DNA of 64,000 nucleotides, taken from the NCBI GenBank assembly GCA_038087875.1, contig CM075988.1, positions 10,852,001 through 10,916,000 of the forward strand. Direction: 5' to 3'. The position numbers and the translations under genes are program-made. Origin of the DNA: Malacoraja senta. Taxonomy: Eukaryota. Shown in pieces: positions 5,385 to 56,879 of this stretch (the stretch's first letter is position 1; every line of letters starts with the position of its first letter). The notes below the pieces were generated by a model. The model was not told the origin of the DNA, made no database searches, and saw nothing but the letters and a program-made list of their open reading frames with translations.

Positions 5385-7448
5385 AATAATTTGAGACGCC
5401 TGTTTAATATAATGTACTCACATAAAGTGGAGGAAGAAGACTTATCAATTATTTCTTTGGACGAGAGAAAGCATTTGATCAGGTAGAATGGCAGTATTTA
5501 TACAAAGTATTACAAAAATTTAATATGGGAGAGAACTTTATTGCATGGGTGAAATTATTATATGATAAACCGATGGCAAGAATATTAACTAACAGCATGT
5601 TGTCTCAAAAATTTCAATTATCAAGGGGTAATAGGCAGGGATGTGCTTTATCACCCCTGCTTTTTTGCCCTTATGATAGAACCTCTGGCTGAAAGTATAA
5701 GAAGCCATCCGAATATTCAGGGTTATAATACTAGGGACTCAAATAATAAAATTTCATTGTATGCAGACGATATTCTGTTATATATAACAAATTCACAAAC
5801 GAGCATACCAAATGTATTAAATTTAATAGAGGAATTCGGGTCCTTTTCTGGATATAGAATAAATTGGAACAAAAGTGAAATTATGACATTAAAACCTCAA
5901 GAATCTACACACTTATTGAAATTCCCCTTTAAAATAGCAACAGAAATATTTAAATATCTGGGTATTCAGATTACTAGAAAACATAAAGCTTTATTCAACG
6001 CCAATTTTATACCCTTAATAAATAAACTTAATATAACGATTAAATTTTGGAAAACACTTCCTTTATCATTAATAGGCAGAATAAATGCTATTAAAATGAG
6101 CTTTCTACCACAGTTATTATACCTATTTCAATCTATACCAGTATATGTACCAAAATATTTTTTTTCTAAATTGAATGCTAACATTACTAATTTTGTTTGG
6201 GACTATAAATCACATAGAATTAAAAAAGAACATTTATGTCAACCAAAATATGTCGGGGGACTTTCACTCCCAAATTTGTTGTATTACTATTGGGCAATAC
6301 ATATTAAGAATATAATTTACTGGTTGGATAGTTCAACCCAACAGACAGAATGGATAAAAATGGAGAAAGAGGATTGTTATCCTTGTAATATAGGAACAAT
6401 CCTCTTCTCCCTGAAAAAAATGAACAATACAATATATAAGAAAAACCCAATTATACAAGATACAATAAGAATATGGAAACAAATAAAATTATCCTTAAAA
6501 CTAAGAAATCTATCATTGTTAACACCGATAGCGAATAATCCTTTATTTAAACCATCTATGATGGATAAAATATATAATCAATGGGAACGTTTAGGAATTA
6601 AAAGGATCGGGGATATGTATGAAATGGGAGATTTACTATCATTTCAACAATTACAATTAAAATTTAAATTGAAAAACACTCATTATTTTAAATATTTTCA
6701 GATTTGCAATTTCTTGAAGACATACATACAGGGATATCAAAAAATAACTCCTGATTTACTAGAAGAAGTAATGAATATTAAAGCTGACACACAAAAAATA
6801 ATATCATATTTATATAATATTATCTTAAATATAGATTTACCTGCGACCGAGGTAATTAGAGAAGAGTGGGCACGGGAATTATTGATAAAAATTACGAAGG
6901 CTACATGGGAAAAGTATTTGACATACATTCACAAATGTTCGATTAACGCAAGACATAATCTAATTCAATTTAAAATTTTACATAGATTATATTACTCAAA
7001 AATAAGATTAAATAAATTTTATCCAAATATATCCCCCATTTGTGATAAATGTTTAACCCAAGACGCAACTATAACACACTCTTTTGTTTCTTGTATAAAA
7101 CTTCATGGATTTTGGAGTGATATTTTCAAAATATTCACAAAATTATTTAAGTCAAAAATGGAACCCAATAATGAATTGATTATATTTGGGGTAATGGAAG
7201 ATGGGAACAAATTGAACCCATCTCAAAAATTATTTTTTAATTATGGTTTAATAATAGCAAAAAAATTAATATTGAAATTTTGGCAAAATACACCAATACC
7301 AACGCTCAAAATGTGGATTGTAAGTATGTTGGATACCGCACATTTTGAGGAAATGCGATTCCTCCTAATAGATAAATTTGACCAATTCATAACGAGTTGG
7401 TCTCCATTTGTCGTCTTTTTGGAAACATATGGTGCAACACAAGTGTAA
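5385..7448 (+). pseudogene. L1 ORF2 C-terminal half (RT + CCHC zinc finger), two frameshifts
   Basis: ISLD/EKAFDQVEW (frameshift ~5464), RGNRQGCALSPLL/FALMIEPLA (frameshift ~5665), SLYADD, FKYLGI, CDKC-x7-H-x4-C; about 590 codons open to TAA at 7448. Confidence 0.92.
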
Positions 7449-10982: not shown

Positions 10983-11353
10983 TAACCTGAACTGCACACA
11001 ATACTCCAAATATGGCCCAACCAAAGTCCTATCATGACTTCCTGACATATTCAATGCAATGAAGCCAATCTTTCCAATCTTTACACCTGTACAATCTTAT
11101 CTACTTATGCTGCCACCTTCAGTAAGCTATGAACTTGGACTTCAAGATCCCTCTGCACATCAATGCTGTTAACGATCTTACCATTAACCATATATATTTT
11201 CCCCTTACATTCAACCTCTCAGAGTGCAACACCTCACACTTGCATGGTTTAAACTCCATCTGCCATTTCTGCAGCTATTATAGAATTTTCAAATCATTAA
11301 ACATTAATGAAATGCTTAATTTAAAAAAAAAACACTTACACCATACATACTGT

Positions 11354-12795: not shown

Positions 12796-14754
12796 CCCAG
12801 AAGGTGGAAAGAGGTTCCTGTTGAAAGCAAATATGTGGCCTGTTTCTGTCCTATAAATAATTTTAATGCCTTGTTAGATTCTAGATCTTGGCTTTGCAAA
12901 TTGGAAGGAGTGTTGTGCCCAGAGCTAGAAATGCAAAGTTTAAGGTTTTAAACATCTCAAAGTTTCCAAAACTATAATGTTACACTTTACTTTAATCCGA
13001 TGAGATATGAAAAGTTTGTGACTTTTCTGCAGTTGTTTCGTGCTCTCTTTCCATCATACGAAAGGCCAAATATTGATCAAGAATGCACAAGTAAAATTTG
13101 ACAGCTAAAAATGCGATGACCTAATTCTGCCAAAGAGAAGCCCGAGTACCAAATATTGTAAAACACCAAAGACATGCTCTGGGGAAGGACTGTCTTGTGC
13201 AAGGATCCCAGGCTTGGGTTGCCTATCATGTTCCAAGCCCAGGAGATTGTGTATGATGGAATAAGCATTGACACAAATGAATTTCCACAAAGGATTTCCA
13301 CCACAATCCACTATCATGGTGCAGTATGCGGAATAAATGCGTTAGAGAGTAGGTTAGTTGTGAGTGTGGAGCTTAGATGTTGATCAGAGAGAGGACCACA
13401 AGGTGTTGGGATGTGAGTGGAAGATTAGCACTGATTCTGATGTTATTCAGTTCTGGCTGCATAGATAATACGGCAGGAGAGGGGAATTCAACATGTGGCT
13501 TTAGAAATGATTGGTGGGGTAGATAAAGTAAGTTGGGGATGTGAGGGAGATGTTGCAAGAGAGATTGGAGAACTAATTGGAGGGGCATCAGTCATAGAGA
13601 GAGAAGAAGAGGTGAGACCTGAAGACATTAATGGAGACAAGAGGGAGTTATGGCAATCAGGAACTATGTAAACTGAAACAAGATATGTCCCTCTCGGGCA
13701 ATAGCCCAGGTAAACTTAGACCCTTTAAATAATGCTGAGAAGGCCTTCAACCTTTAAGTAGATTAAACTTTACACTACTGGTGTGACTATAATGGGAGGT
13801 TCAATTTAGCGCAAGAATTGACAACAAACCTATCAGACACCTTGAGAGGTCGCTGTGCATTCCCAGATGGCTCGGTGCTCATTAACGTCATAAGATTACA
13901 TCTAGGTCAAATTTCAGGAGATCACTAATGGCACCCATAAAATCCACCATATAGTGCACAGAAATCTTCCTGTACCCAACTGAATTACCAGGACACTGAG
14001 TTTTGCACTAATCGCAAGAAGCAAGCTTGTTAACGTTGACTTCCTGGACCAGCAACTCTGGTAATGCTTATCAGGCAGCTGGTATAAATTCATATCAGGC
14101 AGCTGGTATAAATTCTTTGCGCTACCTCATGATTAATAGACCACAGCATGAAAGCAGGCCCTTCAGCCTAACACATCCATTCAGACCAAGATGGCTATCT
14201 AAGCTAGTCACATTTGCCCAAATTTCTGAATAAGATAACCCACAGTTTGAACTGAGAAAAAAGATTATTTCCGTACAATCTACAACTTAACTAATAACCG
14301 ATCGACAAATTCAACATGATTAATTCACCACGGTTCATACCTTCGACATCATACACTATCTACTCAAACCAGGCTGAAAACCACAATGTCCCCACAAATA
14401 TATTCCACACAGAATTTAATACACTGTAAAAAAAAATTCCATGACCGATATTTGTATCAGTAAAGTAATGAGTCACATCTAGATTACTTTCTAAAATAAA
14501 ACATGATTAAACAAGATATCAAGTTGTGATATAAATGCATTGCTTTTTGTGTGCTAAAAATGTATCCTCTCAAGATAATATGTGTGCTTTAGCCAAATGG
14601 TGAATCATAACAACATGTTAATATATTTAAATGGTAGAAAGACTTTTAGGGTAATGTAGATGCAGTGGGTACGAGGCGAGAGGATATGGAACGTTAATTA
14701 TTTTTGGATGTATTTAACAAAGAAATATTAAATACAAAAATGGGTGGGGCAGGT

Positions 14755-14985
14755 CTTCTTCTTGTGTATGGCGTGCACAGCCTAACGTTGTAGGTCAACT
14801 TGTTCATTTGCAGGTCAACTGAGTTTCATGTCAGCCTCACTGAGGTTCAAATGACATGTAATAAATATTGTATTGTATTGTATATTGTATTGTATTGTTC
14901 TCTGATCTTTTTGTTTGTGCACGTCGGGTTGATTGCATTAGTCGAAACAGGGTGGACCACGTGCAGGTCGCAATCTCCCACCCCA
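14755..14985 (-). mobile_element. Short ribozyme-headed non-autonomous retroelement (Ingi/Vingi-like tail) carrying a nested insertion
   Basis: Perfect 10-bp TSD TGGGGCAGGT (14745-14754, 14986-14995); 3' end GCCATACACAAGAAGAAG; nested 89-bp insert 14806-14894 flanked by TTGTTC; no pol III boxes and no ORF. Confidence 0.8.
14931..14984 (-). ncRNA. Minimal 54-nt HDV/CPEB3-like self-cleaving ribozyme fold
   Basis: GGGGUGG-GA-GAUUGCG-ACC-UGCACGU-GGU-CCACCCU-GU-UUCGA-CUAA-UGCAAUC: P1 7 bp with G1.U, P2 7 bp, P3 3 bp, L3 7 nt, P1.1, J4/2 CUAA. Confidence 0.85.
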
Positions 14986-16589
14986 TGGGGCAGGTAAAAA
15001 TGACATATGATTGATATATTTCTTGCGTTGTAATGAATAAAAATAAATATTTGTGTTTAGTAGAGAAAAGTGAGATTGCAAACATCAATAAACTTAAACG
15101 GCGGTTATTTACTTTCCAAAGTTGCTGATTGAAAAATACACAAGAAACAAGGTACAAAAGCATGGGGTGGATATTCTGCCCATTGACAATGAATGGATGG
15201 TAACCATGCCATTAACCTAATTGTACAGTCCATTTGAATAAACTAGTATGACATCGGAGATGAAAATAAGTGACTTGAAATGTCACCATTTGAAGAACAT
15301 TTCTGGCACCACGATAACATAGGGATTACTGGAATACATTAAAGCAAAGTTCAATTTTGTATAGTAGCTGGACACATCAATGTTTCACAAACTTTCTTTG
15401 GTAGCAGTTATTAAACCAAGCCTCATTATTCAGTCAGGTCATGATTGACCTCTATCTCATCGTGTGCGGACGTGGCTACACATCCGGGTTCCCTATCTCA
15501 TATACATTTGCAAAGAGAACTTCATACAGCTTGATATCCTTATCAAATAAACATTGCAAGGCTGAAACTTCCAAAGATCTCTACATCCATTTGCTTTTGG
15601 AGGAGATACTTCAAAGTTTAATGTCTTCTGTGCTTCTTTAGTTTCCTTCTCGCTGGCTTGTGTCTAGTATTAACTTCAAAGCTCAGAGAATATTTTTGTT
15701 ACTATTCTGACCGTTTTTGTTCTTAATTAATTTTAATTTAATCCTACTCATCAGATTTATACCTTGATGGCAATACCAGGATTATCAATTGGTCCAAAAT
15801 GAGGAGACAATTGAAAGTCTACCAGCTTGATCATGGGGCTGGAATCACATTTTGGCCATTCCAGGTAAAGATGGAAGATTGCCTTTCCTGAAGTATATTA
15901 GTGAACCTTTAGGGTTTATAAGGAATACCCTGTTCGTTTTGTTCCATGGTTATTATTAATGAGGCTATCTTCGAAAAAAATAAGTGTATTTTCTTCAGAG
16001 GAAATGGTGGGATTTGAACTAATGTCTAATGGAATTAATGGTCTAAAACATTGGGTACTAGTCCAGTAACATGAAGATTTTTTCAACAGTCCCTTGATCA
16101 CACTTGCTTCCTTCCACTCCAGTTCACTGCACTCAATTTCTCCACTTCACATTTCCCTAAATGACAGGAAGTTTTGCAGTATTTGTACAAATATATTGGT
16201 GAAGTTCCACTCAGAGTGAAACAGGTGCAATTCACAGCCAAGGCTAATATAATTTCCCCATCATGAAAACATTAATCTACGCAGTGCACATTATTTACTT
16301 AATGGCCTGTGATATGTGTCCCAATTCAACAAAGGGACACCATGCTGGAAAACACGAAGTTTGCATTATTTAAAGTGAATCCCCAAACATCTCAGTGCTG
16401 ATTTAATTCTCAGTGCTGATTTAATGCTTTGCAGACTGTAAGCTACAGAGTTCAGCTACCACAATTTGTGACCTGGGTGCAGCCACTGATCGAGAGTCGC
16501 TGGACGACCTGGTTGTGGGGTGTAACGAACCTACTCTATGCTCAAGAGGGGGTCTCCAATAAAGCAATCACTTTAACAACTGCTGACTA

Positions 16590-25790: not shown

Positions 25791-25939
25791 AAAGACAAGC
25801 AAATATTTTTAATGGAGATTGTAAACCAACAGGTTTAGACAATATTCCAAGAGACATGGAAGACAGAATTGGCATGCACTGTTGTCCGGCTCATCATTAT
25901 GAAGACAAAGCAGGAGTCACTAAACTGAACTGGTGAATT

Positions 25940-27172
25940 TTCTGGAATTTTTTGAAGATGTAACTAGGAAAATGGACAAGGGAGAGCCAGTGGATGTAGT
26001 GTACCTGGACTTTCAGAAAGCATTTGATAAGGTCCCACGTAGGAGATTAGTGGGAAAAATTAGGGCACATGGTATTGGGGGTAGAGTACTGACATGGATA
26101 GAGAAGTGGTTGGCAGACAGGAAACAAAGAGTAGGGATTAACGGGTCCCTTTCAGAATGGCAGGCAGTGACTAGTGGGGTACCGCAAGGCTTGGTGCTGG
26201 GACCGCAGCTATTTACAATATACATCAATGATTTGGATGATGGGATTCAAAGTAACATTAACAAATTTGCAGATGACACAAAGCTGGCTGGCAGTGTGAA
26301 CTGTGAGGAGGATGCTATGAGAATGCAGGGTGACTTGGACAGGTTGGGGGAGTGGGCAGATGCATGGCAGATGAAGTTTAATGCAGATAAATGTGAGGTT
26401 ATCCACTTTGGTAGCAAAAACAGGAAGGCAGATTACTATCTAAATGCCGTCAAGTTGGAAAAAGGGGAAGTACAACGGGATCTGGGGGTCCTTGTACATC
26501 AGTCTACGAAAGTAAGCATGCAGGTACAGCAGGCAGTGAAGAAAGCGAATGGCATGTTGGCCTTTATAACAAGAGGAATCGAATATAGGAGCAAAGAGGT
26601 CCTTCTGCAGTTGTACAGAGCCCTAGTGAGACCACACCTGGAATATTGTGTGCAGTTTTGGTCCCCTAATTTGAGGAAGGACATTCTTGCTATTGTGGGA
26701 GTGCAGCGTAGGTTTACAAGGTTAATTCCTGGGATGGCAGGACTGTCATATGCTGAGAGAATGGAGCAGCTGGGCTTGTACACTCTTGAGTTTAGAAGGA
26801 TGAGAGGTTATCTCATTGAAACAAATAAGATTGTTAAGGGCTTGGACACGCCAGAGGCAGGAAACATGTGCCCGATGTTGGGGGAGTCCAGAACCAGTTT
26901 AAGAATAAGGAGTAAGCCATTTAGAATGGAGATGAGGAAACACTTTTTCTCACAGAGAGTGGTGAGTCTGTGGAAATCTCTGCCTCAGAGGGCAGGTTCT
27001 CTGGATGCTTTCAAGAGAGAGCTAGATAGGGCTCTTAAAAATAGCGGAGTTAGGGGATATGGGGAGAAGGCAGGAACGGGGTACTGATTGTGGATGATCA
27101 GCCATGATCACATTGAATGGTGGTGCTGGCTCGAAGGGCCAAATGGCCTACTCCTGCACCTATTGTCTATTG
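25940..27172 (+). mobile_element. CR1 LINE, 5'-truncated, with an open RT C-terminal frame
   Basis: ORF 25933-27087: VYLDFQKAFDKVP, SGVPQG.VLGP.LF, KFADDTKL, HLEYCVQFWSP; 3' tail CTCCTGCACCTATTGTCTATTG. Confidence 0.95.
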
Positions 27173-53765: not shown

Positions 53766-56436
53766 ATAATAATAATAATAATAGATTTTATTTATATAGC
53801 GCTTTTCAGGACTCAAAGTCGCTTTACAATTGAGAGTCAGGAATAAACAAAACAAAATAGAGCAGTAAGACAGAGGGGGGGGGGGGGGGGGGGGAACATG
53901 GGACTAAGGGTATGCAGAGGTGAAGAGATGGGTCTTGAGGCGGGACTGGAAGATGGTGAGGGACTCAGAATTTCGGACCGGTTGTGGGAGGGAATTCCAG
54001 AGCCTGGGAGCTGCCCTGGAGAAGGCTCTGCCTCCAAAAGTGCAGAGGTTTGATTTCGGAATGGAGAGGAGACCAGCTGATGTGGATCTGAAGGACCGTG
54101 AGGGTTGGTAGGGGGAGAGGAGGTCAATGAGATAAGGGGGGGCCAGGTTGTTGAGGGCTTTGTAGGTGAGGACCAGGATTTTGTAGGTGATCCGGTGGGA
54201 AATGGGAAGCCAGTGAAGTTCTTTGAGAACTGGGGTGATGTGGTGCCAGGATTTGGTGTGGGTAATGAGTCGAGCGGCTGCATTTTGGACCAGTTGGAGT
54301 CGTTTGATGCTGCTGGAATTGATTCCGAAAAGAAGAGAGTTACAGTAGTCCAGTCGGGAGGAGATGAAGGCATGGATGAGTCTTTCAGCAGCGGGGGGTG
54401 TGAGAGACGATCTGATTTTTGCAATGTTGCGGAGGTGAAAAAATGATGTTTTGACAACATGGCGGATGTGAGGCTCAAGGGAGAGGGTTGAGTCGAGGAT
54501 CACGCCAAGGTTGCGTGCCTGAGGAGATGGGGAGACAGTGGTGCCGTCGATAGTGAGAGTGGGGTTGTTAATTTTAGTGAGTGTTGATTTGGAGCCAATG
54601 AGGAGAAATTCTGTTTTGCTACTGTTTAATTTAAGGAAGTTGAGTTGCATCCAAGATTTGATGGCTGATAGGCAGGAGTTGATATGGGAGAGAGGGGGGT
54701 GGTGGGGGGACTTGGTGCTGAGATAGATCTGGGTGTCATCAGCATAGCAGTGGAAGTCCAGGTTGAAGTGACGGAGTATATGACCAAGGGGGAGGATGTA
54801 GATGATGAAGAGGAGGGGACCAAGAACGGAGCCTTGGGGAACGCCTTGAGTGACAGTGGCTGTGGCAGAGGTGTGGTTATGGAGAGAGATGAAGTGGGAT
54901 CGGTTGGAAAGGTAAGAACGGAACCAGCTGAGTGCAGAACCTTCAATGCCAAGGTCCCTAAGTCTGTTGAGCAGGATGTTGTGGTTGACGGTATCGAAGG
55001 CTGCACTCAGGTCGAGGAGGTTGAGGATATTGAGGGAGCCAGAGTCAGCAGAGGTAAGGAGGTCATTGAGGACTTTGAGGAGAGCAGTTTCTGTGCTATG
55101 GAGGGGGCGAAAGCCAGATTGGAGGGGTTCGAATAGGTTATACGCGAGGAGGTGGGAATGAAGTTGTGACGCGACGATGCGCTCCAGGGTTTTTGAAAGA
55201 AAGGGGAGGTTTGAGATGGGGCGGTAGTTAATGAGAGAGGAGGGATCAAGACCAGGTTTCTTTAAGATTGGCGTGACAGCAGCAGTTTTGAAAGCAGAGG
55301 GGACAATTCCTTGGGACAATGAGGAGTTGAAAAGATTAGTGAGGTAGGGGCAGAGAGCAGGGAGGCAGGACTTCAGCAGGGGAGTGGGGAGAGGGTCAAG
55401 GGAGCAGGTAGTGGGTTTGGAAGAGCTGATGAGTTTGGAGATTTCAGTAGGGGTGACCGGGTCAAACTGGGAGAGGAAACAGTGAGGGGGTGGGGTATGG
55501 AGATCAGCGGAGATGTTGAAAGGAGGGGCCTTGGTAGGTGGTGGAGTAGATGCTGGGGAGTCGGGTACAGGGGATAGGGATTGATAGATGGTGCTAATTT
55601 TATCAGCAAAAAAGTGGAGGAATGAGTTGCAGAGATCCGGAGTGGAGGTGGGGAGAGTGATGGCTCGAGGCTTGAGGAGGTTGCAGACTGTGGAGAAGAG
55701 GGTTCTGTGGTTTAGGCAGGGGTCGGTGAATATGGAGGAGAGGTATACAGATTTAGCAGCAATGAGGGCATCTTTGTAGGCAGTGAGGTGGAGTTTGTAA
55801 GCTTCATGGTGGACTGTGAGAGGTGATTTCTTTATGAGTCGTTCAAGTCGGCGACCAATCTGTTTCAGCTTACGAAGTGCAGGTGTGTACCAGGGTGAAG
55901 ATTTATTAAAAGTTACAGTTCTTGTTTTGAGGGGAGCCAGAGTGTTAAGGGAGGTAGACAAGGTGGAATTGAGATGGTTTGTGAGATCATCAGGTGAGAT
56001 GTGGGTTGAGTCCAGGGGGAGAGTGGTGGAGAGCAGGTCAGAGAGATGGTGAGGATCGATAGATTTTAGATTACGGAAGGTGATTTCTCGGAGGAAGAGG
56101 GGGCGAGGTGTCGGAGAAGGGATGGTGAACCGTATGAGCTTATGATCCGAGAGGGGGAAGAGGCATGGATGGAGGTCGAGTACCGGTTGATTTGTGGAGC
56201 AGACCAGGTCAAGGATGTGACCTTTGTCATGAGTGGGAAAGGTGACATGCTGAGTGAGAGAGAAGTTGTCGAGTAGAAAAGCGAATTCAGATGCGAACTT
56301 GCAGGTGGGGGAGTCCATATGAATGTTTAAGTCACCAAGTAGCAGCAGACGTGTGGTGAGAGATGAGACAAGTGTGAGGAATTCAGTGAAATCAGATAGG
56401 AAGGAGGGGTTTGGTTTAGGTGGCCGGTAAATGAGG
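53766..56436 (-). mobile_element. L2-clade LINE, 5'-truncated, very young
   Basis: Uninterrupted ORF2 with partial APE endonuclease (IYRPP, GDLNIH, GHILDLV, SDH) and RT ([36 protein letters not shown]); (ATT)n tail. Confidence 0.96.
53904..56435 (-). CDS. L2 ORF2 (partial endonuclease + reverse transcriptase), 843 codons, no native start
   Basis: Part of ORF 53904..56606; the residues before LIYRPP come from flanking SINE/CR1 sequence. Confidence 0.85.
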   Translation of the reverse strand, partial: LIYRPPKPNPSFLSDFTEFLTLVSSLTTRLLLLGDLNIHMDSPTCKFASEFAFLLDNFSLTQHVTFPTHDKGHILDLVCSTNQPVLDLHPCLFPLSDHKLIRFTIPSPTPRPLFLREITFRNLKSIDPHHLSDLLSTTLPLDSTHISPDDLTNHLNSTLSTSLNTLAPLKTRTVTFNKSSPWYTPALRKLKQIGRRLERLIKKSPLTVHHEAYKLHLTAYKDALIAAKSVYLSSIFTDPCLNHRTLFSTVCNLLKPRAITLPTSTPDLCNSFLHFFADKISTIYQSLSPVPDSPASTPPPTKAPPFNISADLHTPPPHCFLSQFDPVTPTEISKLISSSKPTTCSLDPLPTPLLKSCLPALCPYLTNLFNSSLSQGIVPSAFKTAAVTPILKKPGLDPSSLINYRPISNLPFLSKTLERIVASQLHSHLLAYNLFEPLQSGFRPLHSTETALLKVLNDLLTSADSGSLNILNLLDLSAAFDTVNHNILLNRLRDLGIEGSALSWFRSYLSNRSHFISLHNHTSATATVTQGVPQGSVLGPLLFIIYILPLGHILRHFNLDFHCYADDTQIYLSTKSPHHPPLSHINSCLSAIKSWMQLNFLKLNSSKTEFLLIGSKSTLTKINNPTLTIDGTTVSPSPQARNLGVILDSTLSLEPHIRHVVKTSFFHLRNIAKIRSSLTPPAAERLIHAFISSRLDYCNSLLFGINSSSIKRLQLVQNAAARLITHTKSWHHITPVLKELHWLPISHRITYKILVLTYKALNNLAPPYLIDLLSPYQPSRSFRSTSAGLLSIPKSNLCTFGGRAFSRAAPRLWNSLPQPVRNSESLTIFQSRLKTHLFTSAYP

Positions 56437-56879
56437 AATAGGTGCAGGAGTAGGCCATTCAGCCCTTTGAGCCAGCACCACCATTCCCTGTGATCATGGC
56501 TGAAATGTGAAAACACCATGCACACAGCGCCAATAATCTGGATCGAACCCGGGTCTCTGGTGCTGTATGACAGCTGTGCCCCCCCCCCCCCCCAGCATTT
56601 TGACATTTCATCTTATGACAACTTATTTTTATTTGTCTGGGATTTGTGCAATAGGAATTTAGTGGATCCAAAGAAAAGAGAGATCCAATTTCTGGCTTTT
56701 CTGCCTTCTATTAATTCACAATAAAATGTAGTGCTTGTAAATTGTGAAATTAGTTTCCTAAACAATTAGCTAGCTTGTGACGATCCGGCAATATTGGTTT
56801 GACTTGCTTGGAGTGGCCATGTGAATATTGATTCTTCAAATTCTTACATTAATCTCTCAATACAAAAAAAAAACAGACC

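Follow-up and report, generated by a model that had tools for sequence, protein, structure and literature searches.

A predicted 54-nucleotide ribozyme of hepatitis delta virus-like kind at the 5' end of a ~140-bp retroelement family in the genome of Malacoraja senta

How does a retroelement of only ~140 bp acquire a defined 5' end and spread through a vertebrate genome? This question is raised by a short element on the minus strand (14984 to 14755) of a 64,000-nucleotide (nt) stretch of DNA from the skate Malacoraja senta (GenBank assembly GCA_038087875.1, contig CM075988.1, positions 10,852,001 to 10,916,000 of the forward strand), hereafter the window, to which all positions refer. An earlier reading of the letters of the window alone, hereafter the original prediction, had proposed that the element opens with a minimal self-cleaving ribozyme of the hepatitis delta virus (HDV)-like kind, close to that of mammalian CPEB3. 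We find that the element is a dead, 230-bp copy of a ~140-bp family, which we name S. We regard it as probable, with good confidence, that S is a non-autonomous derivative of a long interspersed nuclear element (LINE), reduced to head and tail, with a 5' end made by self-cleavage. Its head is predicted to be a 54-nt, P4-less member of the HDV-like (CPEB3-type) class of self-cleaving ribozymes.

Direct reading of the minus strand places the 54-nt head at 14931-14984, with G1 at 14984, and confirmed its strand and every pair listed for it in the original prediction. P1 pairs 14978-14984 with 14949-14955 through the G1.U36 wobble and six Watson-Crick pairs, while P2 pairs 14969-14975 with 14931-14937 through six Watson-Crick pairs and G16.U48. 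P3 (ACC/GGU) pairs 14966-14968 with 14956-14958 around the 7-nt loop L3, UGCACGU (14959-14965), and P1.1 joins C22 (14963) to G37 (14948). The joining segment J1/4 is GU; it is followed by a 5-nt UUCGA (14942-14946), all that is left of P4, and by J4/2, CUAA (14938-14941). The first base of J4/2, C44 (14941), is the candidate catalytic cytosine of a C-N-A-A motif, and 11 of 11 aligned heads carry the same base at this place. Membership in the HDV-like class is suggested by the nested double pseudoknot of P1, P1.1, P2 and P3, which can be drawn in the canonical order with a P4 of 5 nt, and by the retained catalytic-C position and N-A-A of J4/2. The window contains the 54-mer a single time, and 100 shuffles of the window do not contain it at all. 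The window copy departs from the family majority at two positions of the head. The first, A16G, puts a G.U in P2 where the majority, with a fully Watson-Crick P2, has an A-U pair. The second, U21G, lies in L3, which had been described as one base removed from that of CPEB3; the family majority is even closer, since its L3, UUCACGU, is identical to the Rfam CPEB3 consensus. As the majority form has U21, the G21.U38 pair drawn earlier as part of P1.1 represents a change private to the window copy.

A search of the genome (1.94 Gb in 6182 contigs) with the element returned 3913 first-look candidates. All 40 places that were scored match, aligning from query positions 6-13 to 91-103 and, for the most part, also over 186-243. 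The exact majority 54-mer occurs 152 times (72 + 80), and its reversed control not once. Twenty-six S copies that BLAST aligns from end to end measure 132-141 nt and share 93.6-98.6% identity with the copy at locus L002. Sampled S words are also present in 20 of 23 listed public sequencing runs, including seven further organism labels. The size of ~140 bp originally deduced by subtracting a nested insert agrees with the 131-145 bp of other copies, from which this insert is absent. These observations support S as a real high-copy retroelement family.

To describe its 5' end we used 50 distinct S heads, drawn from 30 loci selected by BLAST, 30 selected by an internal pattern and three composite copies (see below), with duplicated flanks counted once; the BLAST-selected set is skewed towards full-length copies, while the pattern-selected one needs only positions 10-30. 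The 3' end is recognizable in 44 of the 50 and not in the remaining six. A target-site duplication (TSD) of at least 8 nt flanks 34 of those 44, the TSDs of the family being 9-15 bp long. In 26 of the 34 the TSD adjoins G1 directly; seven have a single additional base before G1, and one doubtful copy shows a gap of 5 bases. The additional base, which is untemplated, is a T in six of the seven copies (the window copy, L004, L009, L050, L051 and L077) and a G in L045. In the window itself the perfect 10-bp TSD noted earlier, ACCTGCCCCA, was found again on the minus strand at 14986-14995 and 14745-14754, with the extra T at 14985. Upstream of G1 the sequence varies from copy to copy among the listed S flanks, so that nothing suggests an extension of the family 5' of this base. 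Thus, the stacking of 5' ends at G1, which had been proposed as a check on further copies, is seen in the 26 TSD-flanked copies that start exactly there. As separate observations, two contigs (L027, L028) carry the same S copy with identical flanks, and in L027 the flank and the first 50 nt of the head are repeated ~1150 bp upstream, either as a local duplication or as an assembly duplicate. At L053-L055 an S-head fragment spanning only P1 to P3 is contained in a tandem repeat with a period of ~123 bp.

We observed that heads of the same architecture occur in other families of this genome. Family B is ~415 bp long, with an HDV-like head bearing a long P4, a 5' region of RTE type and an (AAG)n tail, and yielded 4248 first-look candidates; a copy in the window (minus strand, 10983 to 10564) was a source of the covariation evidence below. 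Positions 152-343 of RTE-7_PM, as given in the supplement of PMC5786205, match family B directly after its ribozyme, which indicates that B is RTE-derived. Family C, of ~310 bp, has an (AAGT)n tail, TSDs and a head like that of B with another P1. The P1 strands, CTTCTCC/GGAGAAG in B and CTCCCCG/TGGGGAG in C, are wholly different, with pairing retained. In both families P3 (ACC/GGT) is the one found in S, and P2 is similar to that of S; their P1.1 is G-C, where S has C22-G37, and their P4 is a domain of ~95 nt. A second tiny family, S2, is ~130 bp long and flanked by TSDs (L088, L089), with a 53-nt head, a P4 of ~5 nt and the tail ...GATAAGAAG.

Copies of family C lie near position 1500 of L042, L043, L049, L052, L057 and L062, several of them with internal inserts. 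Family B contains a frame of 75-77 aa that begins with MMADLSG and continues into its (AAG)n tail. This frame is present at L032:1678-1908 and at 149 other places, and is free of stops in 130 of 150 scored copies. A protein search with this short frame recovered B copies only; the frame could have arisen by chance, the sequence being rich in G+C, or be left over from the coding ends of a LINE. Two B copies, one in the window and one at L034, sit at a nearly identical point of one host repeat (10984-11078 in the window), which reflects either a preferred target or an insertion later copied along with the host repeat.

Further heads were revealed by the Rfam CPEB3 model, RF00622, which gave 60 matches among 59 scored candidates from the genome. 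Thirty-nine of these exceed the gathering cut-off of 35 bits, 58 cover the full model, and the best reaches 64.2 bits (E 2.7e-14). Re-examination of 10 places with cmscan confirmed all 10, at 37.4-64.2 bits. The link to CPEB3 is thus stronger than the original prediction could know. Two of the ten places belong to family S2, and five (L080-83, L085) are copies of one LINE, in which an ATG with an endonuclease-like frame lies ~35 nt beyond the ribozyme; the copy at L082 is interrupted after ~250 nt. All five start at the G1 of RF00622, and the sequence directly upstream of them is unrelated. One copy could be traced to its end: it measures 3138 bp, carries an (AAG)4 tail and a 12-bp TSD, and encodes two frames, of 940 and of 88 aa, with a single stop between them, in which Pfam detects Exo_endo_phos and RVT_1 only, with no RNase H. 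A protein-cluster comparison reached only generic reverse transcriptase clusters and no clade.

The supplement of Kojima 2018 (PMC5786205) prints the 5' ends of Vingi-2_Gav, Vingi-4_Crp, Vingi-1_BF and Vingi-2_SPur. The first ~73 nt of our LINE align with these by eye over P3, L3, the start of P4 and J4/2, with a common AGCGTTCACGTCGCG, followed by ..CCCTGTCAG, by the start of P4 and by CTGCGAAT.CT.C. The LINE also resembles Vingi-2_Gav in length (3138 against 3128 bp, the latter from PMC5786205) and in its single endonuclease plus reverse transcriptase open reading frame (ORF) lacking an RNase H hit. By these features the LINE is Vingi-like, a likeness of clade that is drawn from architecture and the by-eye match of the heads. 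We place the S head in a superfamily of heads in this genome, which includes the CPEB3-scoring heads of this LINE and the RTE-derived heads. An exact pattern of the CPEB3-type core occurs at 30 genomic places with six different P1 3' strands. This core holds four CpGs, and its decay is therefore to be expected. A further observation is an old, 5'-truncated head at L087:127-190, with the P4 stem CAGATTCTG, which has 52 of 61 aligned positions in common with the CPEB3 consensus of Rfam, as counted manually from the printed cmscan alignment.

If the fold matters, its pairs should hold where helix sequences differ, and we examined this in an alignment of 11 heads from four families (five S, two S2, three LINE heads and one other). 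L086 was excluded from it as MAFFT moved its P1 by 1 nt, and a MAFFT alignment mixing short and long heads was discarded because its P1 was misaligned. In the pseudoknot structure 93.5% of the cells of the 11-head alignment pair, as against 74.0% in shuffles, none of 500 of which reaches this value, and sliding the 3' partners lowers pairing to 35-49%. Changes on both sides are seen in 13 of 27 pairs (three of seven in P1, five of seven in P2, two of three in P3 and three of eight in P4). Across the 11 heads U20, C22, G25, G37 and the J4/2 residues C44, A46 and A47 are invariant, and the G1.U pair is found in nine of nine heads with letters at both columns. The longer heads tell the same story: P1, P2, P3 and P1.1 hold in 10 B and six C copies, and RNAalifold on four B and four C copies finds six P4 pairs changed on both sides. 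The J4/2 context is GAC in 10 of 10 B copies and four of six C copies, the other two C copies having GAT at a CpG. The conservation of pairing that had been put forward as a test across copies is seen between related heads, and the data support a double-pseudoknot fold maintained by compensatory change across them.

These findings suggest a life cycle in three steps. A source copy would be transcribed within a longer RNA, probably by RNA polymerase II (pol II) read-through from host or neighbouring transcription; the head would then fold and cut the RNA just 5' of G1, thereby fixing the 5' end of the element. Finally, a LINE of this genome with a ribozyme head and an (AAG)n tail would lend its reverse transcriptase, which would copy the RNA at a nicked target and produce the 9-15-bp TSDs. 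We infer the cleavage step because the 5' ends stack at G1 and the fold is conserved. As for the last step, the TSDs and the tail are observed and the partner LINE is what we infer. By analogy with known promoter-less elements, read-through transcription of S is plausible.

Several observations weigh against this reading. No Rfam model matches the S head at E<=10 in cmscan runs of the element and of the whole window. The HDV-like or CPEB3 match suggested for it is thus not obtained with the S head itself, which falls below the RF00622 gathering cut-off; the B and C heads are likewise without an HDV-like Rfam match at E<=10 in the loci with S, B and C copies. Within S, conservation is no greater in the head than in the body (divergence 5.4% against 6.3% in 30 copies). 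The head and body of dead copies decay alike, and the test of the fold must hence come from comparison between families. The minimum free energy (MFE) of the nested-only fold is no better than in shuffles (z -0.47 and +0.20). These z-scores are uninformative on the head, as a nested-only program cannot model a pseudoknot; for the majority S head the MFE fold yields P1 and P3. The heads of B and C open with C1-G37 and not with the usual G.U, and both S2 copies lack the G that would be the CPEB3-type G1, a T belonging to the TSD standing there instead. With a P4 of only 5 nt, the cleavage activity of the S head could be low. Finally, pattern searches of the genome, including those with variant heads, found no LINE with an S-type head or an S-type 3' region.

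Alternatively, the fold could be real but selected for something other than cutting, such as binding of the LINE protein, a protective cap-like fold at the 5' end or a signal for completion of reverse transcription; the 5' end of the element would then arise in a different manner. Covariation by its nature demonstrates a conserved fold and not catalysis, the 5-nt P4 may weaken catalysis, and the ribozyme fold of R2 has been credited with protein binding, internal ribosome entry site-like action and 5' protection (PMC6765202, PMC13708176). However, a mere scaffold would not need the catalysis-specific residues, namely the J4/2 C with its two A's, U20 and G25, which are invariant. Moreover, copies begin at the very nucleotide before which ribozymes of the HDV-like class cut, and close relatives score as CPEB3 ribozymes. 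We therefore hold a purely non-cutting fold to be unlikely.

Another explanation, which we also consider unlikely, takes G1 as a transcription start specified by an internal pol II or RNA polymerase III (pol III) promoter in the head, with the fold being secondary or coexisting with the promoter as in Pr77 of trypanosome L1Tc. The stacking of 5' ends alone cannot separate a start site from a cleavage site, and in L1Tc and NARTc a single stretch of 77 nt is both internal promoter and HDV-like ribozyme (PMC3383444, PMC8190864). Against this, the sequences of P1, P2 and P3 vary between families while pairing stays, as is expected of an RNA structure and not of a DNA promoter motif. The absence of pol III boxes from the element, which had been asserted earlier, is upheld: the 11-nt consensus patterns of A-box and B-box do not match the S head even when 2 mismatches are allowed, and four loci scanned with ARAGORN yield no tRNA-like gene. 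S also does not display the internal pol III promoter and the head derived from tRNA, 7SL or 5S that a strict definition of a short interspersed nuclear element (SINE) asks for. Further, in three composite S copies (L077, L078, L079) one internal TA is the site of a common insert of ~350 bp. This insert is bounded by terminal inverted repeats, and its sense strand contains runs of T5 and of T7-T8. Pol III is not expected to read through such runs, at which it terminates. The composites lie at three different places, two with clear TSDs of their own, which indicates that an insert-bearing source copy was transcribed and copied in full. With no boxes, T-runs tolerated and the same kind of head on a 3.1-kb LINE, it is indirectly supported that S is not a pol III SINE. 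The composite source is also an observation in its own right, as retrotransposition continued with a DNA-transposon-like passenger aboard.

That the ribozyme-like pairing is a chance fit on an ordinary repeat is very improbable: a loose descriptor with free loops and wobbles matches about once per window by our own rough estimate, and the MFE z-scores are not significant, but at least five families with different helix sequences keep one architecture, and relatives pass the curated CPEB3 cut-off of Rfam.

Self-cleavage by the S head as the maker of its 5' end thus remains the reading we prefer, and it calls for a LINE that could mobilize the family. The head of S is a mosaic: its P2, P3 and the bases after P2 resemble the RTE-derived families B and C, while the G-rich P1 with its G.U, L3 and J1/4 GU resemble the Vingi-like heads. 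An autonomous LINE sharing both termini had been envisaged earlier. The 3138-bp LINE and S have the head type and the (AAG)n tail in common, with no further similarity in the 5' and 3' regions. A pattern for variant heads gave 187 matches, 30 of which were inspected. Apart from a tandem repeat and two broken copies these are members of S, B or C, as is each of nine further variant heads. A scan for (AAG)n tails over ~260 kb met no LINE 3' end. The partner would, on the evidence of the heads and the tail, belong to a Vingi-like or an RTE-like clade. As candidates for a LINE sharing the 3' end of S, 29 pattern matches were considered and rejected; the three that were inspected are S copies with an insert resembling a miniature inverted-repeat transposable element, and the other 26 were assigned as S derivatives from 6-base prefixes alone.

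That LINEs and their derivatives carry ribozyme heads is already known, and another example is in itself no surprise. HDV-like ribozymes have been described at the 5' ends of R2, RTE, Baggins/LOA and L1Tc/Ingi elements (PMC5786205, PMC6765202, citing Ruminski 2011, Eickbush 2010, Sanchez-Luque 2011). The RTE and Baggins elements with such ribozymes are promoter-less and depend on surrounding transcription (PMC6765202). In those elements, as in S, a double-pseudoknot ribozyme forms the very first nucleotides, its role there being release from the co-transcript. S differs in that its predicted ribozyme is reduced to 54 nt, P4 being almost gone, and in being a 140-bp, non-coding element with thousands of copies in a jawed vertebrate. 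Non-autonomous LINEs made of head plus tail are likewise known from RTE, Ingi, Vingi and R2 (PMC5786205), named examples being NARTc/RIME/SIDER of the Ingi clade and the R2 SIDEs (PMC5786205; PMC3414825, PMC4035085). With these S would share LINE-type 5' and 3' ends, the lack of an ORF, a ribozyme-bearing 5' terminus and mobilization that would take place in trans. It is much smaller (~140 bp), however, and its mosaic head goes with no parent LINE having both S termini among those found.

Ribozymes of comparable size exist elsewhere. Minimal HDV-like ribozymes of the metagenomic drz-Mtgn type and of phage theta have a very short or absent P4 and ~50-60 nt in total. Unlike S these are microbial or phage ribozymes (see 10.1101/2023.06.13.544163), and they are not known to be linked to retroelements. 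With mammalian CPEB3 (RF00622) the majority S head shares L3 UUCACGU, G1.U36, J1/4 GU and the C-N-A-A of J4/2, and its sister heads in the skate genome reach 37-64 bits over the full length of the model. No score is obtained with the S head itself, and its P2, P3 and P4 differ. S is, moreover, multi-copy and placed at element termini with unrelated flanks, whereas CPEB3 is a single-copy ribozyme in an intron.

What appears to be new is that a P4-less, 54-nt CPEB3-type ribozyme heads a vertebrate element of 140 bp, that Vingi-like LINEs have a ribozyme head, and that the match to CPEB3 is so strong. The list of ribozyme-bearing clades in PMC5786205 omits Vingi, and a ribozyme head of Vingi seems not to be stated in the available text of that paper. 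In the literature searched, a scope that lies outside the primary HDV-like ribozyme papers and Kojima 2011, Vingi and ribozymes are nowhere linked. CPEB3 ribozymes have been stated to be unknown outside mammals (PMC8233481, PMC2950038) and the ribozyme is treated as mammalian in PMC10919898; no source element is named for it in the available portions of the literature searched, and the co-option of small ribozymes from mobile elements is mentioned as no more than a general idea (PMC7761336).

We lean slightly towards the view that the mammalian CPEB3 ribozyme is an exapted 5' head of a Vingi-clade LINE, and that tiny elements repeatedly trimmed the same ribozyme to 53-54 nt. This view would rest on the living-type relatives in the present, non-mammalian genome, which reach 37-64 bits on RF00622, and on the presence of the same head, unremarked, in the printed sequences of Vingi elements in Repbase from crocodilians, amphioxus and sea urchin. 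With dozens of full-length matches to the CPEB3 model at retroelement 5' ends and the printed Vingi heads at hand, a retrotransposon origin of the CPEB3 ribozyme becomes directly testable. Were it true, Vingi heads would supply the outgroup that studies of CPEB3 call missing, and a ribozyme repeatedly trimmed to 53-54 nt would have served as the sole "promoter substitute" of ~140-bp retroelements. A processing site and a LINE-type tail, in place of the pol III head of a SINE, seem to be enough for S to spread. A putative natural minimal CPEB3-type ribozyme of 54 nt with almost no P4 is also a compact candidate for biochemistry.

The remainder of the window copy follows the layout of its family, with one interruption. 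On the minus strand the head is succeeded by the 5' part of the family body (14903-14930, family positions 55-82 by BLAST against the L002 copy), a nested piece missing from other copies (14806-14902) and the 3' part of the body (14764-14805, likewise by BLAST against L002), in which a short hairpin-like GGC..GCC stretch lies ahead of the tail. The tail is (AAG)3 (14755-14763), (AAG)n tails being found in other copies too, and the 3' TSD (14745-14754) abuts it. The nested piece adds ~84-97 bases to the copy by the genome search alignments. From ~14817 to 14895 it belongs to a separate repeat family, which opens with a (CAATA)n run and has 498 first-look candidates in the genome search; of 39 other scored matches, 37 end at query base 89 and two at base 85.

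The genome as a whole encodes major histocompatibility complex class I domains (88 matches, best E 4.9e-24, against none in 14 control genomes) and yields no match to the olfactory receptor family 7tm_4 among 54 scored candidates, as fits a jawed vertebrate that is probably no mammal. The G+C content of the window is 36-45% in most 2-kb bins (range 28-51%). The window also holds three LINE fragments with RVT_1, at 5589-7448 (+), 25924-27087 (+) and 53904-56612 (-), which as far as checked bear no relation to the S element. The last of these has an endonuclease domain in addition, and an (AAT)7 run lies just past its 3' side.

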